DNA of 64,000 nucleotides from Verrucomicrobiales bacterium (GCA_031411295.1 JANOAV010000035.1:68926-132925); one strand, 5' to 3'. Shown: positions 38,232 to 62,681, counted from the stretch's first letter. Notes: a model not told the origin generated them from the letters alone. Made by a program: numbers and translations.

Positions 38232-38258
38232 CGATTACCATGAAGTCGCCACCTCCGA

Positions 38259-38278
38259 TATCCGACTAAAGTCGGATA
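38259..38278. promoter_or_regulatory. Perfect dyad TATCCGAC-TAAA-GTCGGATA upstream of HK1
   Basis: 20-bp palindrome centred about 37 nt upstream of the HK1 ATG (38231). It is a member of the recurrent motif family. Confidence 0.6.
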
Positions 38279-38361
38279 AAGACAAGGTGAGAATTTACGT
38301 TAGACCAACCCCTAGCCCACCATGCCGCGCAGCGAAGACCCGGGGCTTCCAACCACCCGAA

Positions 38362-38402
38362 GCACAAAAGGGAGGACAGGCGCAGCAGGCCCGCCTCCCT
38401 TT
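38362..38402 (-). terminator. Rho-independent terminator of the 38454..39038 gene
   Basis: On the minus strand: AAAGGGAGG, an 18-nt loop, CCTCCCTTT, then TGTGCTT. It lies about 50 nt past the stop. Confidence 0.6.
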
Positions 38403-38453
38403 GTTTGAGGGGAAATTTCATGATGCAGAGGAGGACCATAGCTCCGCGAAGCA

Positions 38454-39038
38454 TCAAGCGGCGTGGGGCCGCAGGACTCGGAGCTGGCGCGTTAGGAACC
38501 GCAGCATGGCCAGGGTGGAGCCGATGAGGTAGAGCCAGGAGAACAAAGCGAAGAGACCGCAGAATCCCAATCCGAATTTCCAATTGGGGAGCGTGAACAT
38601 CCACACGTGCTGCTGGGTGGTGTCATTGAGAAACGCCTGCACCTTCGTCCTAGCAGCATCAGAGCTGGCTGGGGAGATGGACACGGTTAAGTTTCCATTC
38701 CGCCCCAGCAGACTCAATTCATCCTCTCCATCCTGGTGAATGTAACCTTTGTCAGGACGGCTGTAGCTGCCAGATCTACGGCTTACGGACCGATCACTCC
38801 GGATGGTCTTGGCCTCCACCTCCGTCACTTCCGCCACGCGCTGAGTGCGCCAGGGAATGCAGAAGAGCACGCAGGTGCGGGCCGTGGCGGACACGCGGCC
38901 ATCCGCGCCCCGCTCCAGGGTGATCCATGATGCCGGAAGCATGGCCGTCACCAGCACGGGGACGATGATGAAGAGCACAACGCAGATCAACTGAGTGATG
39001 AGTTTTTTGCGGATGGGATGATCGGATGGTAAAGGCAT
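38454..39038 (-). CDS. Hypothetical membrane protein
   Basis: 194 aa with hydrophobic segments near both termini (LICVVLFIIVPVLVTAML and FGLGFCGLFALFSWLYLIGSTLAML). Confidence 0.55.
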   Translation of the reverse strand: MPLPSDHPIRKKLITQLICVVLFIIVPVLVTAMLPASWITLERGADGRVSATARTCVLFCIPWRTQRVAEVTEVEAKTIRSDRSVSRRSGSYSRPDKGYIHQDGEDELSLLGRNGNLTVSISPASSDAARTKVQAFLNDTTQQHVWMFTLPNWKFGLGFCGLFALFSWLYLIGSTLAMLRFLTRQLRVLRPHAA

Positions 39039-39071
39039 GACTTCTGATTGGCTGAAGTTTGTCTGTGTAGC

Positions 39072-39296
39072 TCAGCGCGGGGCTGCAGTGATCAGAACCG
39101 CCGAAGCGGGTGCTGGGTTGGCTCCCGCGTCCGACCACTTGTGGGTGCCAGCCTGTAGTGATCCGGCAGCGAAGCCCAGCATGGTCAGGCCTAGCAGGCG
39201 CAGCCACACGGAACGGACCGAGCGACGTGGTGCGGCCATGGACGGACCACCGAGGCGGTGGATGATGACTTTGGGATAGGAGGCGTTTTGTTTCAT
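39072..39296 (-). CDS. Small secreted ORF, possibly a remnant N-terminus of a larger surface protein
   Basis: MKQNASYPKVIIHRLGGPSMAAPRRSVRSVWLRLLGLTMLGFAAGSLQAGTHKWSDAGANP.. (74 aa from the internal ATG). It sits downstream of a partial copy of the motif array and leader. Confidence 0.35.
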   Translation of the reverse strand: MKQNASYPKVIIHRLGGPSMAAPRRSVRSVWLRLLGLTMLGFAAGSLQAGTHKWSDAGANPAPASAVLITAAPR

Positions 39297-39427
39297 ATGA
39301 GTTTCGCAGTTTGCGGTGATTGAGAGTGAGTGAAGTGGTTCCAGGGCTGTGAGGGCAGAAAGTGCAGCGTCAGGCCGGGCCACTCATTTGGTGTGAGTGC
39401 AGTTTCTCATGATTTGAGAAATGCGGT

Positions 39428-39490
39428 ATTGGACCTCAGTCGGATGCGTTGCTGTTCATTAGCTGTTAGAATATCCGACTTTGGTCGGAT
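39428..39490 (-). promoter_or_regulatory. Two-site dyad array (site 3 at 39428..39445, site 2 at 39473..39490)
   Basis: Minus-strand reading: ATCCGACCAAAGTCGGAT, 27 nt, then ATCCGACTGAGGTCCAATACC. Centre spacing is 45 bp and there is no site 1. Confidence 0.55.
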
Positions 39491-39532
39491 GGAGGACAGG
39501 ATCATGTAGGAAAGAATCATCCTGCAAAATAG

Positions 39533-39640
39533 GTAGAGAGCGAGGTAACGAGACCAGCCCCACGCCCCACAGTAAAAGCGCCACATGGTGCTGGTCTCCT
39601 GACGTCGCCCTCCACATAACCCGTAGCAGGCGAGGTAACC
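39533..39640 (+). repeat. Hairpin repeat family R2, copy A
   Basis: GTAGAGAGCGAGGTAACGAGACCAGC..GCTGGTCTCCTGACGTCGCCCTCCAC plus a partial second unit CCGTAGCAGGCGAGGTAACC. It lies downstream of the FG-GAP gene stop. Confidence 0.6.
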
Positions 39641-39656
39641 ATTTCCTCAATGAAAT

Positions 39657-39687
39657 CACCCGCCGAAGCCAGTGCTCGCGGCGGGTG
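39657..39687 (-). terminator. Candidate terminator of the FG-GAP gene
   Basis: 9-bp GC stem CACCCGCCG / CGGCGGGTG with a 13-nt loop. It is followed on the minus strand by ATTTCATT. Confidence 0.4.
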
Positions 39688-39738
39688 AAAATTTAGATCG
39701 GAGGCAAGAAGCTGAATCCTAGCGACAACCATTTGTCC

Positions 39739-42700
39739 TCACGGCACTTCCTCCACCAGCATCCTCACAAAAAATCTCGGCATCGTCTGCGGCGTATGGC
39801 CCGTGGCGAAAGTTAAAAACGTCCGCCCGCCGACAACCTGAATGGTCGGGTTGCCGCGAGTCCAAACGCCGCCAGTCTCGCTGGCGAAATTATTCCAGAT
39901 CGGCATCTGGGAACCGTCCTCAATCCTCATCCGCACCCGTGGATTGGCCAGTGCCGCATTACTGGCGGTAACCCTGACGTTCACGGGCGACTGCGCAGTA
40001 GGCATCGGTAGCACGGTCAGACGCGCAGCGGCGTTGAGCGATGGCTCTGCCACTGTGGGATTCGTGCCCAGAAAATACTCCAAAAGATTGTAAACACCGT
40101 CGCCATCGGAGTCAGCATAGTTGGCTGCGGTGCCGGTGCCGTCATACTGACCCCAGTTGGTGAAGCGCCAGTTTTCCAGAGTCCCAGTGACGACGAGGCG
40201 CACTAACGCTTCGTCCGTGAGCATGGGATCCAGACGGAAGTCGAGCGTTGGCACTCCCGTGTGCGCTACCAAGGTGCCTGCCGTGGTCGGGTCAGTGACG
40301 TGCTGGATGAAGCAGCCGCGCAACGCGGAGGCATCGGCATTGGCCGTCATACGAATGCGGACCCACAGACGCACGGTCTGGCCGGGGGCAAAATTGATAC
40401 CCGTTGCTGGTGTAACCGTTAGGTAGCCGGTTGAAGTAACGGACCCCACGCTGCCAACCAAGGGATCAATCCCAGACTCGAAATTCATTGGCTCACCGAG
40501 GTCGTTATAGATCTCCACGGCACTAATGAGGGCAGACGCTTGGGCTGTCGTGAGGCCTGCACCCGGATTTAAGCTATTGCCGTAGTTCACGGCCGACAGG
40601 AGTCGAAAGCGCAGACTGCGGATCGCGGCGGAGGCATCCCCGGTGCGTCCGGCATGGGTAAAACTAAGCAACATGGCCACAGGGGCGGCTGAAGGCGTGA
40701 CCGGGATAACGTCGCCCATCCCCAGTTCCATCAGATCAAACTGACCGCAGTTGTTGTAAACGAGTTGCACCTCGTTCCCAGCGGTATCCAGCAACAAAAT
40801 GTCCATGTCTCCATCATGCTCCACATCATACACGACCATGCGATTCAAGGCGGCACCGGAAGCTGAAAAAATGACGTTGGCGGCCCCGAAAGTCCCGTCC
40901 CCTTTCCCTAAGACTAGCACCGCCACGCCACCCCCAGCGGCCACGAGATCCAGCACTCCGTCATTGTTAAAGTCTGCTGCTTCTGCGCAGCGCAGGCCCG
41001 CAGGCAGCCCAAGAATCGGCTTCGGCGTGCCCAAGGTCAAGCTCGTGATCGTGGAAGGCGCGCAATTCACGGTGCCAGTGACAGCATAGAACACATCGGA
41101 GGCTTGGTCCCGATTCGCATCGCCCGTGGCCAACAGACCGGAGGCGCTGTCCCCTTCCCACAGTGGCGTTGGATTGAGCCAAAAGCCAAAGGCCGAGCTC
41201 CAGGCATAACGATAGATGCGGCTGCGGACCGGACTAGTCTCCGTGGTCATGGCCATTAGTTCCAGCCGACCGGAGCCATTGATTTGCACCGGGCAAATCT
41301 TCGTCACGGGTCCTATATTGCTGACCACAATTTCCGTAGTCCAACTGGGAGTATATGCGCCACCTCTGCGCAGCAACGTGATTCCAGTGGCATGACCGAT
41401 GATGATATCGTTGTGGCCATCCTGATCCACATCCGCCACCATCAATTCAGTGGTGCCGGGCGGCAGGGGCGCGACGTTTGTTACCACCCACGTCGAGGCT
41501 GCGCGTGAGACCAACTGCAATTGCCCAATGCCTTCAGCAGCGGTCACCACATCGTCACGACCATCATGGGTGAGGTCGCCCACGGCCAGCACACTAGCTC
41601 CAGCAATGGAGGTGGATATCACCTGCGAATTACCCAGCGCAGGCCCGACGTCGGTATACCGATGCCCACTTTCCCATTTCACCGTATTAAGGGAGGGAAT
41701 GGACCACACCAGATCTCCCTCGCCATCATTGTCCATGTCCCCAGGACAAATATCTCCAATGGGGGCGGACGCATGGATGACCTGTTGGGAGCTAAACTCA
41801 GCGCTGCGGTGAATGGCCGTGTTCCGCAACCAAAAGATACTGCCGATAGCGCTATAAACGAGGTCCGGGTCACCATCACCATCCACATCACCGGAGTAGA
41901 TTTCCGCAGCTTCGTTACCAGCCAGCAGCACCTTGGGAACTAGAAAACTCCCCCCACTGTTCTCCGCCCACAAAATCTGGTGCGAGCCCTGATTACTGTT
42001 GTCCACGTAGAACGCCTGATCTCCGAACACGGCATCCAGATCGCCATCTTCATCCACGTCAACGAGGTGGGTGCCACGCACCCGGCCCGTCGTGTGATTT
42101 TGGATGGAGCTTGGCGCATCGAATCCAGCCCCGTTCCAACGGCACCATGAACTCCGCTGAGCCAAGCCAGCGGTGCCACTAGTCAACACCAGATCGGGGT
42201 AACCGTCACGATCAATGTCCCCACTTTCCATGTGGGTAATGGATCCAGTAAACGTGATATCCGGCCAGGATTGAAAAATGCCGGACGGGGTGCCGCCCAG
42301 GGAGGCAACATTGGTCGCTCCCATCGTCAGATCCATGAAACCATCTTGATCGAAATCTTCCGTCAGCGCTTCGAGCCAATAGGTGGCTGTGACATTCTGC
42401 GTCATTGGTGGCTGGAGCGTGAAGACTCCCGCATTATTTGCCGCCCAAGCAATGCGCCGCACCGATTCCCCGGTCACGGTGTGAAACAATCCTGCATCAA
42501 GGTCCCCATCGCTGTCGTAATCACCCACAATCGCTCCTGCTTGCAGCGCGGCATCAGGAACCGCAACCTCCAGCACTTTCGTAAAAACAAAGTTTGCGTC
42601 ATTGCGCAGCACGACGAGTTGCGAGGGGCTCAAGGTATTGAGGACCACATCCGTGTCACCATCGCCATCCATGTCCCGAGTTACCACCCGGCCCAGCGAG

Positions 42701-42996
42701 GCAGCCGGCCAGGAAAGCGTGGCCACCTGAGTGAACGAGGTTCCGGTGGTGTAACGCATCCATACCAAATTATGCGTGGAGGCTGTCAGCACCTCCTCCT
42801 GACCATCCCGATTGAAATCCGCCACTCCCACCACTTTGCCGAAACTAGTTTGGATCGTCGTCGGCCCAGTAAAAGGATAGGCCATCGCGCGAGGAAGCAA
42901 TGCCGCGAGCATCATGACAGTGCAGAAGATGAGCTTCACTGCGGGACCAGCGAAGCGACGGGTGATGACTTTGGAAAGGGACGGGGTGAATTTCAT
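39739..42996 (-). CDS. Giant secreted FG-GAP/VCBS-repeat (integrin-alpha-like propeller) protein
   Basis: At least 12 Ca-binding-type repeats (DMDGDGDTDVV, GDYDSDGDLDAG, DFDQDGFMDL, GDIDRDGYPDLV, DVDEDGDLDAV, GDVDGDGDPDLV and others), a C-terminal DSDGDGVYNLLEYFLGTNP, and a signal peptide. Confidence 0.9.
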   Translation of the reverse strand: MKFTPSLSKVITRRFAGPAVKLIFCTVMMLAALLPRAMAYPFTGPTTIQTSFGKVVGVADFNRDGQEEVLTASTHNLVWMRYTTGTSFTQVATLSWPAASLGRVVTRDMDGDGDTDVVLNTLSPSQLVVLRNDANFVFTKVLEVAVPDAALQAGAIVGDYDSDGDLDAGLFHTVTGESVRRIAWAANNAGVFTLQPPMTQNVTATYWLEALTEDFDQDGFMDLTMGATNVASLGGTPSGIFQSWPDITFTGSITHMESGDIDRDGYPDLVLTSGTAGLAQRSSWCRWNGAGFDAPSSIQNHTTGRVRGTHLVDVDEDGDLDAVFGDQAFYVDNSNQGSHQILWAENSGGSFLVPKVLLAGNEAAEIYSGDVDGDGDPDLVYSAIGSIFWLRNTAIHRSAEFSSQQVIHASAPIGDICPGDMDNDGEGDLVWSIPSLNTVKWESGHRYTDVGPALGNSQVISTSIAGASVLAVGDLTHDGRDDVVTAAEGIGQLQLVSRAASTWVVTNVAPLPPGTTELMVADVDQDGHNDIIIGHATGITLLRRGGAYTPSWTTEIVVSNIGPVTKICPVQINGSGRLELMAMTTETSPVRSRIYRYAWSSAFGFWLNPTPLWEGDSASGLLATGDANRDQASDVFYAVTGTVNCAPSTITSLTLGTPKPILGLPAGLRCAEAADFNNDGVLDLVAAGGGVAVLVLGKGDGTFGAANVIFSASGAALNRMVVYDVEHDGDMDILLLDTAGNEVQLVYNNCGQFDLMELGMGDVIPVTPSAAPVAMLLSFTHAGRTGDASAAIRSLRFRLLSAVNYGNSLNPGAGLTTAQASALISAVEIYNDLGEPMNFESGIDPLVGSVGSVTSTGYLTVTPATGINFAPGQTVRLWVRIRMTANADASALRGCFIQHVTDPTTAGTLVAHTGVPTLDFRLDPMLTDEALVRLVVTGTLENWRFTNWGQYDGTGTAANYADSDGDGVYNLLEYFLGTNPTVAEPSLNAAARLTVLPMPTAQSPVNVRVTASNAALANPRVRMRIEDGSQMPIWNNFASETGGVWTRGNPTIQVVGGRTFLTFATGHTPQTMPRFFVRMLVEEVP

Positions 42997-43040
42997 GAGA
43001 TTTTGGAAGTTAGATTGAGATGGGTTAAAATATTTCCAAC

Positions 43041-43229
43041 GTTGTGTCGCGACCTGGCACTGTTACTTTCCGTGATTCCCCGGCTCCCTCACACGAGGGA
43101 ACCCGGCGTGGCGCGGGTTACTGATGCCCACCAAGGCTGAATCAGGTCCGCGCAGTTCTCCGCCTAGAGGTTAGGCAGAAAGAGCAGCGCCAGGCCGCGA
43201 CACTCATTTGGTGTGAGGGTAGTTTCCCA
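43041..43229 (-). promoter_or_regulatory. Conserved ~190-nt leader, copy 1 (upstream of the FG-GAP gene)
   Basis: By eye it aligns with 45962..46149 at roughly nine identical positions in ten, with one 1-nt indel. The 45-70 nt next to each ATG and the coding regions are unrelated. Confidence 0.6.
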
Positions 43230-43247
43230 TGTTTTGAGAAATGCGGT

Positions 43248-43341
43248 ATTGGACCTCGGTCGGATGAGTTGCTGTTGAATAGCTGTTAGAATATCCGACT
43301 TTAGTCTTAGAAATGGCTGACAAGTCCGACGTTGGTCGGAT
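43248..43341 (-). promoter_or_regulatory. Three-site dyad array upstream of the FG-GAP gene
   Basis: Site 3 at 43248..43265, site 2 at 43293..43310, site 1 at 43324..43341. Centre spacings are 45 and 31 bp. Confidence 0.6.
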
Positions 43342-43343
43342 GG

Positions 43344-43421
43344 GTAGAGGACAAAGCTCGAGACCAGCACCTCGCAGTCTTTCTCCTGCGAGGCGTGGGT
43401 CTCGTTACCTCGCCCGCTACG
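43344..43421 (-). repeat. Hairpin repeat family R2, copy B (inverted orientation)
   Basis: GAGACCAGCACCTCGCAG..CTGCGAGGCGTGGGTCTCGTTACCTCGCCCGCTACGGG. It lies just downstream of the NHL gene stop. Confidence 0.55.
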
Positions 43422-43499
43422 GGATCATGCAAAACACCCGCCGGAGTTTCCTCCTGCGGGTGTTGGCTGCGTCGGTTCAAACTTTACCGACTGCTCATG

Positions 43500-45890
43500 T
43501 CACCGCCCTTGAAGGCGATAGAATTTCTTCGGCCCTGAGGGAGGGGCGGTGGCGGTCCAGGTCAGGATGCCACCAGCGGGCATGGTGTCAGTGCGCTCGA
43601 TGGTGCTCCAGTCGAGCAGGTCGGTGGAGGAGCGGATGTCGTATTGTTCGCCCTGGGGACCGCTGATGGTGAGGGTGAAGCGATTCTGAGGATTGAAGCC
43701 GAACGCGGTGATCCTGCTGGAGAGGCCGGGACTGAAGCGCAGGAGGTTCCCGTTAGCCACCCAGATGTGACCAGCACTGTCCAGCGCCACGCGGGAGGCG
43801 CCCTGATAGGTGCCATAGACTTTTGCGGGATCACCGAAGGAGCCGTCGGGCACGACGGTGGCAGGCTGGGTGTGGGCACTTTGATACCATGCGATGTCCT
43901 TCTGATCATAGCGGGAAAGGTAAAGGGTGTCGCTGGCACCGAGGCCCAGGCCGGAGACGAGCGTGCCAGTGGCCGCGTTGTTGGTGGTGAAGTTCGGTTG
44001 CAGCAGCACTCCGTCGGCGTTGCCGTTGTTCGGTTTATTCACCGCAGCTTCAAAACGCAGCACTCGCTCATTGCCCGTGTCTGCGACCCAGAGGCGGCCA
44101 GTGATGAAGTCCACTGCGAGGCATCCAGGAAAATAAAGACCGCTGGCACTGAGCGGATGCGTGCCGGCGGTGGTGAGATTGGACGCGCCTAACACGCCGG
44201 AGGCTGCCCCGCCGTTGCCGAGAGTGATCGGGCTGTCGAAGCGCAGCACGCGATGGTTGTTGCGGTCGGAAACCCACAACCGGCGGACGACGGTCTGGAA
44301 GGTCGCATTAAATCCCCATTCCACCGCCAGCCCGGACGGAGTGTTGAGGCGGGACGCGCCCAGTCCGCTGCCAGCGGCAGTGAAGGTTGCCTGGCCGAGC
44401 ACTTGGCTGGCCGCAGTGCCGCTGGCAATCGTGGTGGCATTGGCAAAGCGGAGCACACGATGATTGCGGGCGTCAGCGACCCAAAGGTTGCCGAGTCCAT
44501 CGTAAGCCAGACTGCCCGGGCCGTCCATCTTCGAGGCCGTGGTGCCGCCAGTTGTGGTATTGAAATCAGGCTGCCCTAGCACGGCCTCGGGCACACTATC
44601 GGCTGTGAGTGATGGTGCCGCAGGGAAGCGGAGCACGCGGTTTCCAGAGGCATCGGACATAAAGAGTTTCCCACTGACGGACTCAACGAGCACCTCGTTG
44701 GCCCCAAGGAACGTGGGGCGTGCGAAGGACTTCCTTCCCAACACGCCGTCCGCATCCGTGCCGTTGCCTTTGGTAGCTGCATTGTCGTGGCGCACGACGC
44801 GGTTGGTGGTGTCACCAATCCAAAGGCGTCCGGCAAAGGCCGCAATGCTGGTCGGAAGCGTGAGGCCGCCCGCGCTTTCGGACATGCTGGCGGAGTTGAA
44901 GTCAATCTGTCCCAGCACGAGATCGGCATTGGCTCCGATCGCCTTGCTGCCTGCAGCCGTGAAATAGAGCGCACGATGATTATTGAAGTCCGCAACCCAC
45001 AGGCCGCCGTTGTCCATCGCAGCCTTGTAAGGCCGGTTGAGACGACTCGGGCCGCCCGCACCAGGAGTCGCGCCATAGACCGACTGACCCAACAGCTTGT
45101 CGCTCGGAGCCCCATTGATTTTGGCCCCGGGATTGTTGAATCCAAGCACACGGTTGTTATACCAATCCACTACCCACAGGCGCACTGTGGTGCCGCCGGA
45201 ATTTTCCACCGCTAGACCAGTGGGTGTATTGAACTCAGTTTCGGTTCCGCCGCTGAATCCACCCGTCATGGAGGTCTGGCCCAACACCCCGTCGGCATTC
45301 ACCCCACTGCTGCGGCTGGCGGCATTGTCAAAACGCAACACGCGGCTGTTTGAGGAATCCGCCACCCACAGCCGGCCAGCGGCATCCATTTCCACATCTT
45401 GCGGTGACTTCATGCGGTTGGCCGCCGTGCCGAAGTCTGTGGAAGTAAAATTTGGCTGCCCCAGAACTACGGAAGCTGCCGCACCGCTGCTGGCGGTGAG
45501 TGCATTATCAAAGCGGAGCACCCGGCTGTTTCCCGTATCCGCCACCCAGAGTCTGCCGCCAGCGTCCACACAGATACCCGAGGGATCATTCAATTGATTC
45601 GTCCCCGCCCCAGGCAGCAACTCATCCATGTCGGCGGCCCCAAACACCGCCTCCGCCAACCCGCCGTTCTGCAGCGATGCCGCCGAACTGAAGCGCAGCA
45701 CACGGTGCCGCGCACCATCGGCCACAAACACTTTCTGCTGCACGGGATCCACTGCGATGTCCTTCGCAGAAAAGAGCCCTGCGGCTTCCATGCCGCCGAT
45801 GACAAGGTCCGGGGTCTGACCGGAAGTGAAACCCGCCTGCGCAGTCGCAGTGGTAAGGAGTAAGGCGATAAGCAATGCGAGTCTGTTCAT
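43500..45890 (-). CDS. Secreted NHL-repeat beta-propeller protein
   Basis: Signal peptide MNRLALLIALLLTTATAQA. At least 10 NHL-type units end in N(H/S)RVLRF (ARHRVLRFSS, GNSRVLRFDN, RNHRVLRFAN and others). Confidence 0.9.
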   Translation of the reverse strand: MNRLALLIALLLTTATAQAGFTSGQTPDLVIGGMEAAGLFSAKDIAVDPVQQKVFVADGARHRVLRFSSAASLQNGGLAEAVFGAADMDELLPGAGTNQLNDPSGICVDAGGRLWVADTGNSRVLRFDNALTASSGAAASVVLGQPNFTSTDFGTAANRMKSPQDVEMDAAGRLWVADSSNSRVLRFDNAASRSSGVNADGVLGQTSMTGGFSGGTETEFNTPTGLAVENSGGTTVRLWVVDWYNNRVLGFNNPGAKINGAPSDKLLGQSVYGATPGAGGPSRLNRPYKAAMDNGGLWVADFNNHRALYFTAAGSKAIGANADLVLGQIDFNSASMSESAGGLTLPTSIAAFAGRLWIGDTTNRVVRHDNAATKGNGTDADGVLGRKSFARPTFLGANEVLVESVSGKLFMSDASGNRVLRFPAAPSLTADSVPEAVLGQPDFNTTTGGTTASKMDGPGSLAYDGLGNLWVADARNHRVLRFANATTIASGTAASQVLGQATFTAAGSGLGASRLNTPSGLAVEWGFNATFQTVVRRLWVSDRNNHRVLRFDSPITLGNGGAASGVLGASNLTTAGTHPLSASGLYFPGCLAVDFITGRLWVADTGNERVLRFEAAVNKPNNGNADGVLLQPNFTTNNAATGTLVSGLGLGASDTLYLSRYDQKDIAWYQSAHTQPATVVPDGSFGDPAKVYGTYQGASRVALDSAGHIWVANGNLLRFSPGLSSRITAFGFNPQNRFTLTISGPQGEQYDIRSSTDLLDWSTIERTDTMPAGGILTWTATAPPSGPKKFYRLQGR

Positions 45891-45961
45891 GGTATGAATG
45901 AAGTTGCAGGAATTCTCCTGTTGGTTTGGGTTTTGCAGTGATTGAAGAAATGGAATCCAAA

Positions 45962-46149
45962 GTGATGTCGCGGCCTGGCACTGTTACTTTCCGTGGTTCC
46001 CCGGATCCCTCACACGAGGGCTCCCGGCGTGGCGCGGATTGCTGATGCCCACCAAGGTTAATCAGGTCCGCGCAATTCTCCGCCTAGAGGTTAGGCAGAA
46101 AGTGCAGCGCCAGGCCGCGACACTCAGTTGGTGTAAGGCTAGCTTCCCA
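45962..46149 (-). promoter_or_regulatory. Conserved ~190-nt leader, copy 2 (upstream of the NHL gene)
   Basis: See 43041..43229. A shorter third copy of the distal ~75 nt lies at 39352..39427. Confidence 0.6.
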
Positions 46150-46168
46150 CACCTGGCAGAAAACGGGT

Positions 46169-46262
46169 ATCGGACCTCAGTCGGATACGTTGCTGCTGAT
46201 TAGCTGTTAGATCATCCGACTTTAGTCCTAGAAGCCCGTGTCAATTCCGACCTTGGTCGGAG
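46169..46262 (-). promoter_or_regulatory. Three-site dyad array upstream of the NHL gene
   Basis: Site 3 at 46169..46186, site 2 at 46214..46231, site 1 at 46245..46262. Centre spacings are 45 and 31 bp. Confidence 0.6.
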
Positions 46263-46328
46263 CAGCCAGCCTGACCAGTCCGGTGCCAGTGACTCCGAAT
46301 AAAGTCCTTTTTCACCTTAGCCAGACTA

Positions 46329-46586: not shown

Positions 46587-46602
46587 CGAGCGTGCGTGCG
46601 GC

Positions 46603-47148
46603 TTAGGCACGACCAAGATAAACCGAGCGGATGAGCGGTTGGCTCGGCTTGGAATCCAAGAGGACCACCTGAGTCCCATGATTTTTGGCCAGGCCAAAAA
46701 CAAAGCCGGAGGAAGGAAGCCGGAGGCGCACCGTCCGTTGCGCGCCTTGGTAGGTGTAACGGATCCACGCATAGTAGGAATGGCCAACCGTTCGACTAAT
46801 CGGAGAATCCTCAACTTCACGTCGCACCTCCACTGCCTCCAGATCATCCACCATTGCACGGATGATATTTCCCTGCGTTAGAATGCGCTTCACCAGCAAA
46901 TAACGCCGCACCAAAAGGATCAGTCCCAGAAAAATCATTCCGCTCGCTGCCAGCGTAGCATAGTGCGTTAAGGACATATCAAAGTCCCGATCGGCTGACG
47001 CGGGAGCCGCTGCGATGGATGGTGAGATCCACTTCATCCCAGCGGCCAGGACTACTCCGGCCAGGCATAGTTTCCCGGACCGTCGCAGGGGAAGATCTAC
47101 GAAATACAGGGATTTAAAACTGGGGAGGGACTGGGTTTCAGGGTTCAT
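46603..47148 (-). CDS. Membrane protein, DUF3592-like
   Basis: The start was moved to MNPETQSLPSF (ATG at 47148) because the motif array lies inside the longer track ORF. Two TM segments flank a beta-rich segment (GNIIRAMVDDLEAVEV..YAWIRYTYQG). Confidence 0.55.
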   Translation of the reverse strand: MNPETQSLPSFKSLYFVDLPLRRSGKLCLAGVVLAAGMKWISPSIAAAPASADRDFDMSLTHYATLAASGMIFLGLILLVRRYLLVKRILTQGNIIRAMVDDLEAVEVRREVEDSPISRTVGHSYYAWIRYTYQGAQRTVRLRLPSSGFVFGLAKNHGTQVVLLDSKPSQPLIRSVYLGRA

Positions 47149-47205
47149 GGCTATGGAAGCTCTTGGTGGCGTGGGTAATCTTTCCACCACCGGACCAAAT
47201 AGGGT

Positions 47206-47266
47206 ATCGGACTTCAGTCGGATAAAGCAACGTTCTGCGGTATCGGGCATCCGACTAATGGCGGAT
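47206..47266 (-). promoter_or_regulatory. Two-site dyad array upstream of 46603..47148
   Basis: Site 3 at 47206..47223 (minus strand ATCCGACTGAAGTCCGATACC). A degenerate site 2 at 47249..47266 (ATCCGACTAATGGCGGAT). Centre spacing is 43 bp. Confidence 0.45.
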
Positions 47267-47316
47267 GCTACCCAATTGTTCCCATCCCAAAGCGCAACGG
47301 CCAAGCGTTGGATCCT

Positions 47317-50300
47317 TTAGTTCCATGCCGGAATCCGCACTGTGAAGGTGGTGCCTTCCCCAAGTTTGGAGTGCACTTCCAAGGTGCCACCATGTAGTTC
47401 CGTGCACCGCTTGCAGAGCACCAAACCGAGGCCAGTGCCGGCAATGTTACCGACGTTACTGGCTCGATGGAAGGCTTCGAAGAGCTCTGGCAGGTCGGCC
47501 TCCGGGATGCCGATGCCACTGTCCCGCACGGTAAATACCGCCATGCTGCCATCGCGTCGTGCGCTGAGATGCACTGCCGATCCTTCTGGAGAATATTTCA
47601 CCCCATTGCTAAGTAGATTGGTGAAAATATGGCGCAGCAGAGCCTCATCCGCCTGGGCTCCCGCAAGTTCACTTTCCGCAGTCCAGACAATGGGACACCT
47701 GCCGTTTGTCAGAGACCATTGCTCGTCAGTGACCTTGCGGGAGAAGGCATTCAGATCCAGCGGAACCGGCTTGGAACCGAGTTTGCCAGCATCCACCCGT
47801 CCCAAGACCAGCACCTGTTCCATGAGGCCAGCCATATTACGCGTGGAGGAATGGATGTCCTGGAGCAATTGTTTTTTCTCCTCCGGCGGAAGGCGATCCT
47901 CATAGTGTTGCAATAGTTCAACTGCGCTCATCGTGATGCCCAGCGGAGTGCGGAATTCGTGACTCACCGTGGTCACAAATCGATTTTTCAGCTCATTGAC
48001 CTCACGCTCTGCGGCAAGCTCGCGTTCCTTTGATGACGCCAGATCCACCGCTTCCACGAACTCGCTCGAGAGCCGCTTCTGGCGACGAAAGAGCGCCACC
48101 CCAAGCAAACTAGCAGCAGTAGCGGAAACGAGACCAAGGACAATGGGCAGCAGGCCGGAGTTACTGGTTTCTGATTTGTTGGTAAGATGATTTGCAATCG
48201 GTGAACCAGCCGTCCAATCCAGACCAAGTTCAGCCAGATGATCCCGTCGCAACGCGCCCAGATTGATGACGCGAGCATTTCCCCCCGGCCCCGTGGCGAA
48301 CATGCGTGAGGCATCGGCAGAGAAACGCAAGCCTGTTAGCGGGTAAAGTCCCGGCACTTGAAACGATGCCAGTGACTTGCCATTGCCAGCGCTGGCGATC
48401 TCCGCGCTGTCCAGATCGCCAGTCCATGCGAGCATGGTGCCATCTCCCGAAAATGCTGCGGCCCCGAGAAATCCTGCCAACGATGCCGGACGGGCCACGG
48501 ACCAGTTTTCCTGCCATGACCCCACCGACCACAGTTGCACGTTGCGGACGCCAATCGTCACCAGCGAACGGCTGTCCGGGCTGAAGCACACATGCGCCAC
48601 CGGACAAGGCAGGCGCGCTACTAGCTTGCCCGTGCCCGCATCCCAAATGGTGGGATCTCCCGAAACCGTGTCGCGTCCAGCCACGACCCATTTCCCATCC
48701 GGGCTGATCGCCAGCGCCCCGGAACCCAACGCACTAGCCGGCCCCGGCAAGTCCTGAGGAAAGCGCGTCCCTTGTTCCAGAGCCAAGGGCGCGGAAGGGT
48801 CCGCCATTTTCACGACATAGAGCTGGCCATCACTGCAGGCAATGGCCGCAACTTTTCCAAGATCGCTAAACGCTGCCATCACGGGAGTCAGACCAGCCGG
48901 CAATGGAATGCGACCGGCCTCCGGCAAACCTCCCTTCGGCAAGTTGGCAAGATCCGGCCATTCGTGAATCGTGAGCGCTCCCGGAGCGCTGAGCCAGATG
49001 CGATTGGTGCCAGGCAAAAATCCAGCGCAAACCTTGCGTCCAAGCGGCAGCAAGGCCTGCAGGGAACGATCCGGCTCAAAAAGCTCGAGGGAATGCGCCC
49101 CGGTCCAGATGGGCGGAGACCACAACGCGCGACGACCATCAGTTGAGAAATCCTGCTGCCAAATGGTGGCCCCGTCCGTGTAGCGTCCTTGCAGCAGCGT
49201 ATCTGATGAAGGTTGCGCCACGCGCCAAACGCCAACTTTCTGCTTCGGAATACCCCAGGCGATGCGATCCCCGCGTCTCGATATCACCACCCCGCGAGCC
49301 GCATTCGACTGACACAACAGCTTGGCGGTGGACACATCCCAGAGACTGGTTACTCCGTCCAACCCAGCCGTAAGCAGCAGTGAACCATCCTCATTGAAAC
49401 GCTGCACCCACGGCTGCACGGTGCGACCACCCAGCTGCAGTAACCGACCCGAGGCGGCCTCCATGAGGAAGAGCGTGGCATTCCCGCAACCAAATGCGAG
49501 ACGGTCCCCACGCTGATCCCAATCCAGCGTCTTCACAGAGGTCGGAGCTAGCGCCGTGTGTTTCACCGCACCCGAGACCGCATCCAAGAGAAAAACTTGC
49601 GCCCCTTGAAACCATGCCAGCAGATCTCCGCGTGGGCTCACCGCCACTTGATTCTGCGGGCCGGTATATTTCAAAAGATCCGGCATAGTGGCGGGCCGCC
49701 GTGGCTGTTTACTGGCGATATCATAGAGCACATCAGTTCCCTGGGAGCCGGAAAGGGTGATTCCCATCGTCAGATCATTCGCAGTAAAGGTAGGCGGCCA
49801 CGAGTAGTTTGCGGACTTCGCATCCATTCCTAAAATGCAGACCGTGCTCCCCTTATCACGCTCGAACAACACCAGCGGGCCCTTTTCATAACGCACTGCG
49901 AGATACTTCCCAGTGGAGGAAAACTGAAAGTCCATGGCTGCACATTCGGCCGGCACTTCCGGCGGGCGGGGAAAATCCCTAACCAGAGCATTATCTTCCA
50001 AGCGAAACATCGAAACCACGCCCAACTGGTAGCGCGTGACATAGTGCTCAAGCTCTGGATCGAACGCGAAGCCGCGGACATTTTCTTTCAAATCCCACGC
50101 CACCTCGGTTTCAAAATCCAGGGATCGCAACGCCGCGATCGCTTCGTTTCGTAACTCCACAGAAGGTCGGATGGCCGCCGCCGCCCGCACTGCGCCCAGC
50201 GCGGCCGCACGATGCCCTGCCTGCGGGTTGGTGCGCTCCGCGCTGGCCCGCGCCAGCGACACGCCCCAAAGCCGTTCGGTGGCCTCACTCTCCGCCTGCT

Positions 50301-50484
50301 CGGCTCGCAACTGATGCCGCCCACTGCGAATGGCGAAATACACTGCCAGGCACGCCAGGCCCAGCGCCACGAATAGCAGCAGCCCCAAAGCACGATTCGC
50401 GCGCAGCAGATCAGCCTGCACTTCATTGCGGCGTTTGGTCAAGAGTTTGGCTTCTCTTTGGTTGGCGGAACCTTTTATTTTCAT
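47317..50484 (-). CDS. Orphan sensor histidine kinase HK2 with a ~700-aa extracytoplasmic WD40-like beta-propeller sensor
   Basis: TM1 LLLFVALGLACLAVYF. WD40-like units (LLTAGLDGVTSLWDV, SPDGKWVVAGRD..PTIWDA, FSPDSRSLVTIG..VQLWSV). TM2 LLPIVLGLVSATAASLLGVALF. H-box SHEFRTPLGITMSAVELLQHYEDRL and an HATPase_c domain. Confidence 0.9.
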   Translation of the reverse strand: MKIKGSANQREAKLLTKRRNEVQADLLRANRALGLLLFVALGLACLAVYFAIRSGRHQLRAEQAESEATERLWGVSLARASAERTNPQAGHRAAALGAVRAAAAIRPSVELRNEAIAALRSLDFETEVAWDLKENVRGFAFDPELEHYVTRYQLGVVSMFRLEDNALVRDFPRPPEVPAECAAMDFQFSSTGKYLAVRYEKGPLVLFERDKGSTVCILGMDAKSANYSWPPTFTANDLTMGITLSGSQGTDVLYDIASKQPRRPATMPDLLKYTGPQNQVAVSPRGDLLAWFQGAQVFLLDAVSGAVKHTALAPTSVKTLDWDQRGDRLAFGCGNATLFLMEAASGRLLQLGGRTVQPWVQRFNEDGSLLLTAGLDGVTSLWDVSTAKLLCQSNAARGVVISRRGDRIAWGIPKQKVGVWRVAQPSSDTLLQGRYTDGATIWQQDFSTDGRRALWSPPIWTGAHSLELFEPDRSLQALLPLGRKVCAGFLPGTNRIWLSAPGALTIHEWPDLANLPKGGLPEAGRIPLPAGLTPVMAAFSDLGKVAAIACSDGQLYVVKMADPSAPLALEQGTRFPQDLPGPASALGSGALAISPDGKWVVAGRDTVSGDPTIWDAGTGKLVARLPCPVAHVCFSPDSRSLVTIGVRNVQLWSVGSWQENWSVARPASLAGFLGAAAFSGDGTMLAWTGDLDSAEIASAGNGKSLASFQVPGLYPLTGLRFSADASRMFATGPGGNARVINLGALRRDHLAELGLDWTAGSPIANHLTNKSETSNSGLLPIVLGLVSATAASLLGVALFRRQKRLSSEFVEAVDLASSKERELAAEREVNELKNRFVTTVSHEFRTPLGITMSAVELLQHYEDRLPPEEKKQLLQDIHSSTRNMAGLMEQVLVLGRVDAGKLGSKPVPLDLNAFSRKVTDEQWSLTNGRCPIVWTAESELAGAQADEALLRHIFTNLLSNGVKYSPEGSAVHLSARRDGSMAVFTVRDSGIGIPEADLPELFEAFHRASNVGNIAGTGLGLVLCKRCTELHGGTLEVHSKLGEGTTFTVRIPAWN

Positions 50485-50548
50485 GTGATTGAGATCTCAC
50501 GGTTAAGACCGGACCTTCAGAGCCTCAACTAGATTTATATCCTCTGCC

Positions 50549-50642
50549 ATCCGACTAAAGTCGGATACGGAACTGAAATGCAGGACCAAAGTCGGATGCT
50601 CCAGGCCCCTCTAGCAGATCCCTTATCCGACCATGGTCCAAT
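50549..50642 (+). promoter_or_regulatory. Three-site dyad array in the divergent HK2 / DUF4870 intergenic region
   Basis: Site 1 at 50549..50566 (ATCCGACTAAAGTCGGAT), site 2 at 50580..50597, site 3 at 50625..50642 (ATCCGACCATGGTCCAAT). Centre spacings are 31 and 45 bp. Confidence 0.6.
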
Positions 50643-50675
50643 ACCACAATCAGCAGAATTGTGGAAGGATGAAAC

Positions 50676-51170
50676 ATGCAGCAAAACACTCAGCTGCTAA
50701 CTCCGCGACTAACAAAGCGCAATTTCACTTCAACCATCAATAATCCTTACCATCATAACCTTATGAACCATACCACCATCGAAAACCAACTCGCCAAAGC
50801 CCGTCGTTTCCAACTGAATCTGGAGGAGGCACCTGCTTTCGGTGCGGGCTCCATGCCAGCCTCTGAAGAGCGCACCTTCGCCATGCTGGCGCATCTGTTC
50901 CCACTCATCGTGTGGCCTTGGAAACGCAAGTCCAGCTCGGCTGTGGATGCCCACGGCAAAGAAGCGCTGAATTTTGCGATTACCGCCCTGCTCATCATTT
51001 GGCCCATCGGATTCATCGCAGGCTTCTGCGGCGTGACCGTCGCCAAAATTGTGGCCCTGGGCACCAGCGTGCTGAGCCTAGGCCTCCTGGCATTGGTCGT
51101 CTGCGCCATGATTCAGGCCGGCAAAGGAAGGCTCCTCCGTTATCCCATCAACTTCCGCTTCATCAAATAA
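50676..51170 (+). CDS. DUF4870-family membrane protein
   Basis: ERTFAMLAHLFPLIVWPWKRKSSSAVDAHGKEALNFAIT matches the DUF4870 pattern. An alternative start is the ATG at 50763. Confidence 0.7.
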   Translation: MQQNTQLLTPRLTKRNFTSTINNPYHHNLMNHTTIENQLAKARRFQLNLEEAPAFGAGSMPASEERTFAMLAHLFPLIVWPWKRKSSSAVDAHGKEALNFAITALLIIWPIGFIAGFCGVTVAKIVALGTSVLSLGLLALVVCAMIQAGKGRLLRYPINFRFIK

Positions 51171-51222
51171 ATCAACTCACTCAACTAACCTATAAATCAA
51201 AACTCCTAACCTTCACCATCCT

Positions 51223-51738
51223 ATGAAAAACACTACTATTAAACACCCCCTCATCGCCCTCCTCAGCCTCTCCAGCATTACCGGGCTCACCAGTTGTTCC
51301 GAAAAGGCCACTGCTGCAAACGGTAAGGCTGCACCTACTGCCGACAAGGCTGCAGGCAACACGGAACAAACCTTTGTGGCCGCCTTCCGCACAGCTTTGG
51401 AGAAAAACGACAAGAAAACGCTGGATTCATTTCTCCTGAAGGATGGCACTCCCGCGGAGATCGTGGAATTCTTCACCATGATGATGGACCTGCCCGCGGG
51501 CATGAAGATTGAAAGCGTCGAATTGGTCACTCCAACTGCGGAAGAGGCAGCGAAATACAACAAGGCCATGGAAATGCCTGATGGCAAAAGCTACAAACTG
51601 CCCGTGACCCCCACGAAACAACTGGTGATTATCATGAAAGAGGAGGGAGCCAATGGCAGCGGCACCTCCAAGTCATCCCTGCCAGTGGCGGAGAAGGACG
51701 GTAAGATCGTCATCCCCCTGCCCGTGCCTGCCGCATAA
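51223..51738 (+). CDS. Lipoprotein, function unknown
   Basis: Lipobox LSSITGLTSC after a signal sequence; 171 aa. Confidence 0.65.
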   Translation: MKNTTIKHPLIALLSLSSITGLTSCSEKATAANGKAAPTADKAAGNTEQTFVAAFRTALEKNDKKTLDSFLLKDGTPAEIVEFFTMMMDLPAGMKIESVELVTPTAEEAAKYNKAMEMPDGKSYKLPVTPTKQLVIIMKEEGANGSGTSKSSLPVAEKDGKIVIPLPVPAA

Positions 51739-51847
51739 CGAATAACGGAATCCAACGAACGTCTTGCCAACCGTCGCCACCCTGCTCCCAGGGTGGCGGC
51801 GGCCACCGCTGGGATAAGCCACCTCATCACGAAAGCTCCGCTGATCT

Positions 51848-52339
51848 ATGAAAACCGCCACCCGCCAACAAACAATTTTTCGACGCATCATCGGCACGTG
51901 CCTGATTGCCTTCGCCCTTGTCGGCATTACCGCGCTTTGCCTGAAGGAAATCCCGCTGGCTTTCTTTGGGATGCACGCCACTGGTTTTGTGAAACAAGTG
52001 GAAGTCATCCAGACGAGCACGGCTTCAAAATGGCGCTACAGTCAACCGCAAAGCCGCAGTGGCTCCACCACGATCATGCACATGGTCCACACGACCACGG
52101 AGGGGAAACCGATTGAGAGCAAACACACCGCCACGTTCCACACCGAGGCCAAAGTAGGTGACGAGCACGAATTAATTTATCTCCCATGGCATCCGCAGCG
52201 CGCCATGATCTATAGCGCCAAGCAACTGTGGTTACCCATGACGACCGGAGTAATCTTTAGCACCATCTGCCTGTTTCTGGGCCTGCGGTGCTTCCGCGCC
52301 AAGCCCTTCTTCCCCACCCCGAAAGGATTCCAATCCTAA
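51848..52339 (+). CDS. DUF3592-like membrane protein
   Basis: An N-terminal TM, a beta-rich middle with AKVGDEHELIYLPWHPQRA, and a C-terminal TM. Confidence 0.6.
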   Translation: MKTATRQQTIFRRIIGTCLIAFALVGITALCLKEIPLAFFGMHATGFVKQVEVIQTSTASKWRYSQPQSRSGSTTIMHMVHTTTEGKPIESKHTATFHTEAKVGDEHELIYLPWHPQRAMIYSAKQLWLPMTTGVIFSTICLFLGLRCFRAKPFFPTPKGFQS

Positions 52340-52677
52340 TGATCAAGACCGGAACCATCCCACAGGTATCCAGCGCCACCGCTTTCACTCCCGCTCTTCC
52401 AGCAAAAGAAATCGTGACCGCGAAACAACACGCCGCCTTGTGGACCGTGATCCTCGTCCTGGTGGCCATCACCAGCGCCATGGGATGGCTGGTGCTGCGT
52501 GGTATCGAACGCGGTGAGACCGTCATGCCTTCCAAACACGCCTCACGTCAACGCCCCCTCATCCGAAATCAAGCACCAGCCTCCTTCTGGGGTGCGCTGA
52601 GTGTTTACACCTTAGTCGGCCTCAGCACTGGCGCTGGCAGCCTGTGGCTCATCCGCATGGCATGGCGGATCAAGTAA
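52339..52677 (+). CDS. Small membrane protein
   Basis: The start is taken at the ATG overlapping the previous stop (TAATG at 52337..52341). Two TM segments. Confidence 0.5.
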   Translation: MIKTGTIPQVSSATAFTPALPAKEIVTAKQHAALWTVILVLVAITSAMGWLVLRGIERGETVMPSKHASRQRPLIRNQAPASFWGALSVYTLVGLSTGAGSLWLIRMAWRIK

Positions 52678-52721
52678 ACAGGCAGTGATTCGCGAAGAAT
52701 TGCGGATGTTGGCGGCGGCGT

Positions 52722-52739
52722 ATCCGACTAAAGTCCTAG
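52722..52739. promoter_or_regulatory. Single dyad site upstream of HK3
   Basis: ATCCGACTAAAGTCCTAG, centred about 65 nt upstream of the proposed HK3 ATG at 52796. It lies inside the longer track ORF. Confidence 0.5.
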
Positions 52740-52795
52740 GTGCCGGGTGGGGGTTGGGCTTGCGGCGGGTGGGGGTCGCTGCGAAGTTATTGGCT

Positions 52796-62555: not shown

Positions 62556-62663
62556 ACCAGCCTAGGCTTGGATTCCAAGGGGGCAACCCCTCAGTCATCG
62601 GAGACGGCTTCAGTAAAAAGTGTTTCATGGTCAACACAATGCTGCCACTCCACCAAGCCTGCC

Positions 62664-62681
62664 ATAAGACTTTAGTCGGAT
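62664..62681. promoter_or_regulatory. Isolated half-degenerate dyad site between the lipid operon and the esterase gene
   Basis: ATAAGACTTTAGTCGGAT has a site-2-type sequence. No partner sites were found at the expected spacing. Confidence 0.3.

Follow-up and report, generated by a model that had tools for sequence, protein, structure and literature searches.

Based on a single inverted-repeat motif that recurs ahead of three orphan sensor kinases (HK1, HK2 and HK3) and of several multi-site promoters in a 64-kb window, the whole stretch of DNA analyzed here from an uncultured Verrucomicrobiales bacterium, we propose, at a probability of roughly 0.7, that these dyads are DNA sites for a dimer of the response regulator RR-A, which would partner all three kinases in a feedback circuit. 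RR-A represents a NarL/FixJ-type (GerE helix-turn-helix) response regulator subfamily of Verrucomicrobiaceae, and from its genomic associations and recognition helix it is the likely dyad binder.

Across the 73 sites collected, the dyad is a 7-4-7 inverted repeat of 18-20 bp with the consensus tATCCGAC-N4-GTCGGATa and sequence-specific half-sites. Variation at T2, G5 and C7 is almost absent from either arm, and G5 and C7 are the same in 72-73 of the 73. An 18-mer search allowing at most 3 mismatches returned 17 strand-hits where 0.03 were expected. A position weight matrix recovered 18 sites scoring 14.6 bits or more, every one within 38.2-62.7 kb of the window, with no score above 10 bits elsewhere in the 64 kb and not one dyad site in its first 38 kb. 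The coordinates that the first-pass annotation had given for one dyad ahead of each kinase (Table 1) were borne out, as was its view that a single motif precedes both the three kinases and the multi-site target promoters. Measured to the start codon, the dyad stands 49.5 nt upstream in HK1, 73.5 nt in HK2 and 65.5 nt in HK3. It had also been claimed, correctly, that no response regulator gene adjoins these kinases: when all large ORFs were scanned against Pfam, the nearest receiver domain was that of the regulator at 12510-13142, the only one in the window and 22 kb from HK1.

Table 1. Kinases, dyads and candidate promoter elements in the 64-kb window
Feature	Coordinates	Strand	Score or basis
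REC + GerE regulator (subfamily B, 12510-13142) with HisKA kinase HK4	12510..14674	(-)	Pfam
HK1 sensor kinase; PAS_4 + HisKA + HATPase_c, no receiver domain	35565..38219	(-)	Pfam
HK1 extended -10-like element TGgTAATCG, hexamer TAATCG	38232..38237	(-)	inferred
HK1 box, perfect 20-bp palindrome TATCCGACTAAAGTCGGATA	38259..38278	(.)	31.1 bits, top-scoring site of the window
Terminator-like hairpin then T-run, upstream of HK1 box	38375..38395	(-)	
Two-box array upstream of truncated FG-GAP paralogue (start near 39296)	39427..39491	(-)	
Three-box array upstream of FG-GAP repeat gene 39739-42996, centres 31 and 45 bp apart	43247..43342	(-)	
Three-box array upstream of NHL repeat gene 43500-45890	46168..46263	(-)	
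Two-box array upstream of small membrane-protein gene (about 46603-47148), just downstream of HK2 stop codon	47205..47267	(-)	
HK2 kinase; periplasmic WD40 double propeller + HisKA + HATPase_c, no receiver domain	47317..50484	(-)	Pfam
HK2 -10-like AACCGT, 18-nt spacer from -35-like TTGAGG	50499-50504	(-)	inferred
HK2 -35-like TTGAGG, exactly 30 nt from dyad centre	50523..50528	(-)	inferred
HK2 box, includes ATCCGACTAAAGTCGGAT at 50549-50566	50548..50567	(.)	29.6 bits
DUF4870 operon promoter, middle + proximal boxes	50579..50643	(+)	
HK3 box TATCCGACTAAAGTCCTAGG, core ATCCGACTAAAGTCCTAG at 52722-52739	52721..52740	(.)	23.7 bits
HK3 candidate core promoter: -35-like TTGCGG 52760-65, 17-nt spacer, -10-like GAAGTT 52783-88	52760..52788	(+)	inferred
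HK3 kinase; WD40 propeller + HisKA + HATPase_c, HK2-like architecture, no receiver domain	52796..55954	(+)	Pfam
Two-box array upstream of DUF4412 gene, just downstream of HK3 stop codon	55981..56044	(+)	
Single box, intergenic between 62555 and 62777	62663..62682	(.)	26.1 bits

The dyad is retained by related kinases, a check that the first-pass annotation had itself put forward for orthologues: where the kinase cores are 60% or more identical, an automated screen detected it for 19 of the 21 cases that could be evaluated, and manual inspection added one more. In about 16 other Verrucomicrobiaceae loci it stands 20-210 nt upstream of related-kinase start codons, preceding two related kinases each in L001, L002, L085 and L086 and a related kinase in L003, L004, L009, L012, L013, L015, L017, L018 and L023. 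The 18 related loci carry 2.6 sites per 10 kb as against 0.05 in 66 control loci, which hold more distant kinases and yielded only 3 weak sites over 547 kb. The dyad accompanies kinase cores that share 60% or more identity with that of HK2, and in a signature screen the regulators adjoining such kinases were of the RR-A type and never of type B; cores below about 59% identity lack the dyad and are paired with a type B regulator.

The RR-A gene adjoins dyad-bearing kinases in related genomes and is itself preceded by a dyad, which lies 42-46 nt upstream of its start codon in L084 (the cultured Brevifollis gellanilyticus), L085 and L086, is found directly ahead of it also in L004, L009, L013 and L015, and is usually common to a divergent globin gene. 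As the RR-A genes sit behind their own dyad, kinases, regulator and targets share one box, in line with the first-pass proposal that the kinases are autoregulated by the factor controlling the target promoters within one circuit; the common box, its conservation and the dyad-preceded RR-A lend that proposal support. The gene is absent from the 64-kb window, where tblastn with RR-A matches only the regulator at 12510-13142. A point against the proposed pairing is that HisKA-type kinases are less usual partners of NarL-type regulators than HisKA_3 kinases.

Among the closest parallels is DosR/DevR of Mycobacterium tuberculosis, whose site is likewise an 18-20 bp palindrome with an identical central GAC-TWWA-GTC (PMC3177182, PMC2275270, PMC4082495): the central 10 bp of the dyad, GACTWWAGTC, equal the core of the DosR consensus TTSGGGACTWWAGTCCCSAA (PMC2275270), and the bases G5 and C7 of each half-site, invariant here, are essential for DevR (PMC3177182). 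Both regulators are of the NarL/LuxR type with a recognition helix of the form E-K-T-V-K-(N/Q); that of RR-A, S-E-K-T-V-K-Q-H, keeps DosR K179 and K182, with Q replacing N183. The two systems also resemble each other in having, as proposed here, more than one kinase per regulator, one of them unlinked (DosT beside DosS), target promoters whose 2-4 boxes include both strong and degenerate ones, boxes common to divergent promoters, and an autoregulated regulator operon (PMC3177182, PMC2275270, PMC4082495). However, the outer half-site bases are aTCC rather than the SGG of DosR, boxes follow one another at centre spacings of 31-45 bp instead of directly in tandem, and the kinases, in place of cytosolic GAF-haem proteins, are membrane-bound and combine a HisKA domain with periplasmic WD40 propellers or PAS domains. 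Furthermore, every kinase gene here has its own single box and a small globin gene accompanies that of the regulator, in a different phylum and with only moderate similarity of the RR-A GerE domain to DosR (E about 1e-6).

The candidate promoters fall into two arrangements. For HK1, whose ORF (35565-38231, minus strand) opens at TTG 38231, the previously reported spacing of about 37 nt to an ATG holds as a distance, but its endpoint is that TTG and no ATG occurs there; the likely start is the first in-frame ATG, 38219, 49.5 nt from the dyad centre, a distance shared by the orthologous PAS kinase of L085. Judged by the -10-like hexamer, 32-37 nt from the dyad centre, transcription would begin a few nucleotides short of ATG 38219, with the dyad near -43.5, and the terminator-like hairpin upstream of the box implies that HK1 has its own promoter. 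At HK2 the hexamer positions would instead place the dyad near -65; this box also belongs, as the distal one, to the divergent DUF4870 promoter array, whose proximal box is centred 42.5 nt from ATG 50676, and it could serve that promoter only. The HK3 box combines a consensus left half with a variant right half, GTCCTAG, which recurs in related genomes within a composite double dyad, and its 20-mer has an identical copy in L011. With the -10-like GAAGTT ending 7 nt before ATG 52796, the HK3 mRNA would be leaderless or nearly so and the dyad would lie near -65.5, a layout also present in L001, L002, L003, L004 and L086. No terminator was predicted between the upstream DUF4870 operon and HK3, which may also be read through from that operon.

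All promoter hexamers near dyads are weak matches, and the promoter search found no consensus sigma-70 promoter. Among the promoters compared, which are often orthologous or paralogous and thus give counts that are not fully independent, NAnnnT hexamers peak at +31 to +33 in 20 of 37 dyad promoters and 7 of the 19 kinase promoters have a TTG at +30 (background 0.35 per offset). Dyads near -43.5 and -65 would occupy activator positions, which makes a positive loop, that is activation, the most likely form of feedback. The first arrangement recalls the LuxR lux box, a 20-bp inverted repeat that binds a GerE-type dimer, has its centre some 42-44 bp before the transcription start and replaces the -35 element; as judged from sequence, the HK1, RR-A, globin and proximal array boxes share this class II geometry, although LuxR proteins are ligand-gated and not phosphorylated, and the HK2 and HK3 boxes lie about two helical turns further upstream, beside a -35-like TTG. 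Sigma-54 enhancers of the NtrC type, which go with a -24/-12 promoter (TGGCAC-N5-TTGC) and an AAA+ regulator, were considered and rejected: when the promoter sequences were checked manually, no GG stood at the right spacing from the TTGC at +30, and the linked regulators consist of REC and GerE only, without an AAA+ domain.

In light of these features, we posit that RR-A, encoded outside the window, would be phosphorylated by HK1, HK2 and HK3, which belong to the clade of RR-A-partner kinases. RR-A~P would then bind the two- and three-box arrays at the FG-GAP, NHL, DUF4870, DUF4412 and small membrane-protein promoters, as well as single boxes at its own promoter and at each kinase promoter, acting at HK1 from near -43.5 in combination with an extended -10, and at HK2 and HK3 from near -65 in combination with a -35-like TTG(C/A) and a -10-like hexamer. 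Through positive feedback, sensor levels would rise once the pathway fires. Much as in the multi-kinase networks KinA-E of Bacillus sporulation and GacS/RetS/LadS, unlinked kinases with varied sensor domains and closely related cores here seem to feed a common output regulator; this convergence is suggested by the kinase-core clade and the promoter boxes, with no phosphorelay intermediates identified, and those networks are not defined by a box on each individual kinase gene.

It is unlikely, in our estimate, that the dyads are operators of some other factor encoded elsewhere, such as a Crp/Fnr-, TetR- or one-component regulator, with the kinases mere regulon members outside any two-component feedback. 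Fnr-type factors also bind palindromes with a 4-bp spacer and no regulator gene adjoins the dyads in the window, but RR-A is the only regulator gene found repeatedly beside dyad-bearing kinases and itself dyad-preceded, the box core and invariant G5 and C7 match DevR boxes, and RR-A keeps the base-contacting lysines of DosR. The regulator at 12510-13142, co-transcribed with HK4, is a quite improbable binder of the dyads and partner of HK1-3, even though it too is of the NarL/FixJ type and HK4 has the H-box VSHEFRTPLGII in common with HK1-3. Its operon has no dyad nearby (top score 6.5 bits), its recognition helix S-L-G-T-V-K-K-H, conserved in 120 orthologues, has no equivalent of DosR K179, and kinases paired with subfamily B regulators in other genomes are without dyads. 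As the HK4 core is, moreover, 37-42% identical to those of HK1-3, as against 56-76% among the three, this subfamily B protein is probably not the dyad binder.

Two further explanations deny the dyads a role as regulatory DNA. That they are RNA hairpins acting in transcripts as stabilizers, attenuators or terminators is favored by the -10 kcal/mol fold of the perfect 20-mer and by several boxes just downstream of kinase stops (47248 and 55981 here; 9848 and 13101 in L001); yet 106 of 132 non-consensus arm positions (about 80%) break pairing and only 12 are compensatory, 23 of the 73 sites fold more weakly than -3 kcal/mol, and T2, G5 and C7 are kept as sequence on both arms. Neither T-runs after the dyads nor a called terminator at any dyad were found, and the dyads keep fixed distances upstream of the -10-like or -35-like hexamers, all of which disfavors this reading to the point of making it very improbable. 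Slighter still is the chance that they are REP-like or MITE-like palindromic repeats dispersed by a transposase and devoid of regulatory function. They are indeed short extragenic palindromes, and Y1-transposase-like matches occur in the window and in L085, but the 38 kb of the window without a site speak against dispersal, L003 and L084 each have one dyad, exactly at a kinase or regulator promoter, and position relative to orthologous genes is conserved despite diverged flanks.

Beyond the proposed RR-A circuit we tentatively envisage, at somewhat less than even odds for all parts taken jointly, a previously undescribed Verrucomicrobiaceae-specific module. In it, several unlinked kinases, of the PAS type or with periplasmic double WD40 propellers, would converge on a globin-paired DosR-like regulator, with each kinase, the regulator and the globin drawn by a box of its own into one positive-feedback circuit; transcripts would be largely leaderless, the globin would be of the single-domain sensor type, and the main outputs would be secreted FG-GAP and NHL propeller proteins. 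The FG-GAP and NHL outputs would, in addition, carry a structured but unclassified leader RNA, about 165 nt long, which may sense a second signal.

To our knowledge, almost no transcriptional regulation has been characterized in the host phylum. Regulator boxes on a system's own signaling genes are a well-known logic, met here in an unstudied system, and the box, regulator subfamily, kinase clade and targets together define, from sequence alone, a complete candidate regulon that can be tested in the cultured relative Brevifollis gellanilyticus. Three orphan kinases thereby gain a likely partner, the regulator in the same window being probably the wrong one. The pairing with a globin, together with the DosR-like box, suggests a gas or redox input, and the leader RNA is a candidate for a novel cis-regulatory RNA.

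All three dyads, inverted repeats of 18-20 bp, that the first-pass annotation had placed upstream of the orphan sensor kinases HK1-HK3 were found at the positions it reported, and scanning every large ORF of the window against Pfam returned a single response regulator, in keeping with the orphan status claimed for these kinases. The 37 nt given between the HK1 dyad and its ATG does not hold as an ATG distance, as it ends at the TTG of position 38231. An ATG first occurs in frame at 38219, which puts the dyad centre 49.5 nt away; the protein read from this codon opens with a signal/transmembrane-like N-terminus, and an equal dyad-ATG distance is seen at the orthologous PAS kinase of the related locus L085. 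The HK3 box retains the consensus in one half only, and the HK2 box doubles as the distal box of the divergent DUF4870 array.

Features of the window and of comparison loci from related genomes (L001-L086); unprefixed positions are those of the window
Feature	Position	Strand	Sequence or remarks
HK1 dyad	38259-38278		TATCCGACTAAAGTCGGATA
HK2 dyad	50549-50566		ATCCGACTAAAGTCGGAT
HK3 dyad	52722-52739		ATCCGACTAAAGTCCTAG
HK1	35565-38231	-	Pfam: PAS_4, HisKA, HATPase_c; receiver domain absent
HK2	47317-50484	-	Pfam: WD40 propellers, HisKA, HATPase_c; receiver domain absent
HK3	52796-55954	+	Pfam: architecture as HK2; receiver domain absent
Window regulator	12510-13142		REC + GerE; co-transcribed with a fourth kinase, HK4
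Dyad upstream of kinase	L001 (two kinases), L002 (two), L003, L004, L009, L012, L013, L015, L017, L018, L023, L085 (two), L086 (two)
RR-A/globin module	L084:77-1240; L085:9485-10642; L086:5987-7137		Single-domain globin, PF00042, 135-144 aa
-10-like hexamer close to start codon	50665-50678, 52783-52798, 38219-38237; L084-L086		L084-L086: regulator and globin promoters
Leader RNA copies	43030-43216, 45951-46136; truncated 39354-39430	-
Leader RNA copies	L001:21625-21815; L002:15410-15600
Composite double dyad	L011:4893-4926; L016:2391-2424, 5110-5143; L085:11580-11613, 16874-16916

Allowing at most three mismatches, the 18-mer gave 17 strand-hits in the window against 0.03 expected from shuffles, and a symmetrised weight matrix built from the sites identified 18 sites of 14.6-31.1 bits, all within 38.2-62.7 kb; nothing in the rest of the window scored above 10 bits, the first 38 kb being devoid of sites. 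Beyond the kinases, the window boxes are grouped by twos and threes into arrays of recurrent design: a distal full palindrome, a middle box 31-34 bp on and, a further 42-45 bp on from the middle box, a proximal box, ATCCGACYGAGGTCCRATACC. Such arrays lie upstream of an FG-GAP repeat gene, an NHL repeat gene, a probable truncated FG-GAP paralogue, a small membrane-protein gene, the DUF4870 operon and a DUF4412 gene. The earlier proposal that kinases and target promoters share one box, and that the kinases would be autoregulated by the factor controlling the targets, is supported as far as sequence analysis reaches. A lone high-scoring box (26.1 bits) is also present at 62663-62682, between acyltransferase-side ORFs and an esterase gene (62777-63694).

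Based on comparisons with related genomes, we found the dyad retained 20-210 nt upstream of the start of related kinases, a check that the first-pass annotation had proposed. The WD40 kinase family is small and confined to Verrucomicrobiales MAGs; the loci compared were three HK2 orthologues (65-71% identity) and 80 loci from a species-representative genome collection, recovered by a scan keyed on kinase-core peptides, which therefore returned close relatives together with many distant kinases, most of the 80 being kinase-core relatives only and the distant ones serving as negative controls. Across 18 related loci, 200 kb in total, the weight matrix found 52 sites (2.6 per 10 kb), versus three weak sites in 547 kb of the 66 other loci (0.05 per 10 kb). 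When the kinase cores were ranked by identity to HK2, dyad presence split cleanly: cores at least 60% identical, HK1 and HK3 included, carried it in 19 of 21 evaluable cases in an automated screen, with one more added by hand, and cores below about 59% almost never did. Several related loci also contain a composite double dyad, ATCCGAC-N4-GTCCTAGGAC-N4-GTCGGAT, in which two boxes offset by 14 bp have a central CCTAGG in common; its halves resemble the HK3 box as well as the window arrays' middle boxes, with their CTAGGAC/CTAAGAC halves.

The central ten bases of the box, GACTWWAGTC, are those of the DosR consensus, TTSGGGACTWWAGTCCCSAA (PMC2275270), and G5 and C7 (18-bp numbering), which DevR binding requires in each half-site (Chauhan et al., PMC3177182), are intact on both arms in 72 and 73, respectively, of the 73 sites from the window and related loci. 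Two further readings of these sites can be weighed here. If the dyads were RNA hairpins, arm substitutions would be expected to preserve pairing; yet 106 of 132 departures from consensus break the pair, with 14 yielding G-U and 12 being compensatory, folding is weaker than -3 kcal/mol at 23 of the 73 sites, and scans of the HK1 and HK2/HK3 regions found neither a T-run 3' of the dyads nor a terminator called at them. We accordingly disfavour this reading as very improbable, and regard REP-like repeats as the least probable of all, the sites being gene-specific and non-dispersed, which also argues against hairpins. The dyads are thus better taken as DNA sites, which we filed under the DosR-box type, as predicted sites for binding by a NarL/FixJ-type regulator; a linked regulator of the probable kind was found in related genomes only.

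A tblastn search with the window regulator revealed that a NarL/FixJ-type regulator normally follows this kinase-core family; the regulators beside these kinases form two groups. Those adjoining dyad-bearing kinases (L004/L005, L009, L013 and L015), here termed RR-A, share 62-73% mutual identity and are just 50-55% identical to the window regulator; the dyad precedes each of these RR-A genes. A search with one RR-A sequence recovered hundreds of close relatives, among them one from the cultured Brevifollis gellanilyticus (L084; GCA_007992435.1), where, as in two MAGs, RR-A and a small globin gene are transcribed divergently from an 87-bp spacer with a single dyad at its centre, 42-46 nt from either start codon. 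The same globin-dyad-RR-A module occurs in L009, L013, L014 and L015, making seven loci, and the pairing hints that the input is a gas or redox signal. Both RR-A and the globin are absent from the window; L086 and the lone HK2 orthologue of L003 belong to the same assembly, so one genome has dyads in front of clustered kinases as well as orphan ones.

The recognition helices tell the two groups apart. S-E-K-T-V-K-Q-H was exact in 70 of 120 RR-A sequences, the remainder being mostly mis-registered by the pattern search, and all 120 window-regulator orthologues have S-(L/V/I/P)-(G/A)-T-V-K-K-H. The corresponding DosR helix, confirmed against PDB 1ZLJ and 3C3W, is A-E-K179-T-V-K182-N183-Y, of which K179, K182 and N183 contact bases (PMC4082495). 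We therefore propose RR-A as the probable subfamily of dyad-binding regulators. That the window regulator itself, the only one at hand in the window, binds the dyads seems improbable, given its unfavourable recognition helix, an operon of its own without a dyad, and the lack of dyads at kinases paired with its type of regulator. Recognition by a transcription factor of some different kind is unlikely, though less so than the window regulator. Across Verrucomicrobiota, HisKA-type kinases (PF00512) that have the H-box VSHEFRTPLGI systematically have a NarL/FixJ-type regulator as their partner (window 12510-14674(-) and most of L019-L054); the more usual partners of such regulators are HisKA_3 kinases.

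A scan around the HK1 and HK2/HK3 regions found no consensus sigma-70 promoter, as is expected of activator-dependent promoters. The sole terminator-like hairpin in these regions (38375-38395, minus strand) lies upstream of the HK1 box, and HK1 must therefore have its own promoter within the 155 nt holding the box; transcription of the DUF4870 operon may read through into HK3, as the interval between the two has no predicted terminator. When 37 promoters were aligned on the dyad centre, hexamers with the two key -10 positions (NAnnnT) peaked sharply at +31 to +33, in 20 of 37 promoters versus about 1.5 per offset elsewhere, and were often preceded by TGn. This geometry, shared by HK1 (TGgTAATCG), the RR-A and globin promoters and all proximal array boxes, is class II-like and would place the dyad near -43.5. 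In a second class, seven of 19 kinase promoters have TTG exactly at +30 (background 0.35 per offset), followed in all but one case by NAnnnT 16-18 nt on, as at HK2 (TTGAGG, 18-nt spacer, AACCGT) and HK3 (TTGCGG, 17-nt spacer, GAAGTT, with the ATG 7 nt further); here the dyad would lie near -65, displaced upstream by two turns of the helix while keeping the same face. Activators typically occupy either position, so positive feedback on the kinases is the better guess. A sigma-54 reading of the TTGC at +30 was rejected, the GG of the -24 element not being at the required spacing, as was GGAA(A/G)G as a Shine-Dalgarno sequence, a motif that the FG-GAP and NHL promoters place about 230 nt away from the start codon and that fits an extended -10 instead. 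Many regulon genes have -10-like hexamers 5-8 nt before their start codons; transcription is in many cases predicted to start at, or a few nt before, the start codon, which suggests leaderless or near-leaderless mRNAs in these Verrucomicrobia.

Three promoter-plus-leader modules of the window are mutually paralogous across about 300 nt. Between the dyad-array promoter and the FG-GAP/NHL coding regions lies a structured leader RNA of about 165-190 nt, for which RNAalifold on four sequences predicts 54 pairs (-83.5 kcal/mol), with a long closing helix and a multi-stem junction, and compensatory changes at seven pairs among just these four. Rfam gave no match for the entire window at gathering thresholds or for the FG-GAP leader at E up to 1, making the leader a candidate new cis-regulatory RNA. 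A conserved upstream small ORF (MGNYPHTK and MRNCTHTK at two arrays) was rejected, as a stop interrupts the NHL copy in frame and the copies of L001 and L002 differ. The 74-codon ORF at 39072-39296(-), whose start region is paralogous to the FG-GAP gene start and then meets a stop, retains its two-box array intact, together with the leader's first 77 nt, and is probably a truncated FG-GAP paralogue or pseudogene. Elsewhere in the window, the alanyl-tRNA synthetase ORF (22447-26151(+)) is unusually long at 1234 aa, with its catalytic domain in two stretches and a weak IS200-like Y1 transposase match at residues 579-660, and may contain an inserted domain or element.

The nearest analogue is DosR/DevR with its kinases DosS and DosT, whose promoters combine conserved primary with degenerate secondary boxes, at times common to divergent genes (Chauhan et al., PMC3177182). 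The present system resembles it in box core and critical bases, regulator family and contact residues, multi-box promoters of mixed strength, the proposed convergence of several kinases on one regulator and the predicted autoregulation. It differs in the outer half-site bases (TCC versus GGG in DosR) and box spacing, in its kinases, which are membrane proteins combining periplasmic WD40 or PAS sensors with HisKA and each have a separate box at their gene, and in its globin partner. The motif had no match in the searchable literature, and a literature search found no paper describing WD40 kinases of this type in Verrucomicrobia. To the shared box, our analysis adds a probable regulator subfamily, a kinase clade and a predicted promoter geometry. 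The regulatory logic is commonplace among two-component systems; the system itself is undescribed, and it belongs to a poorly studied phylum in which a cultured relative allows direct testing.
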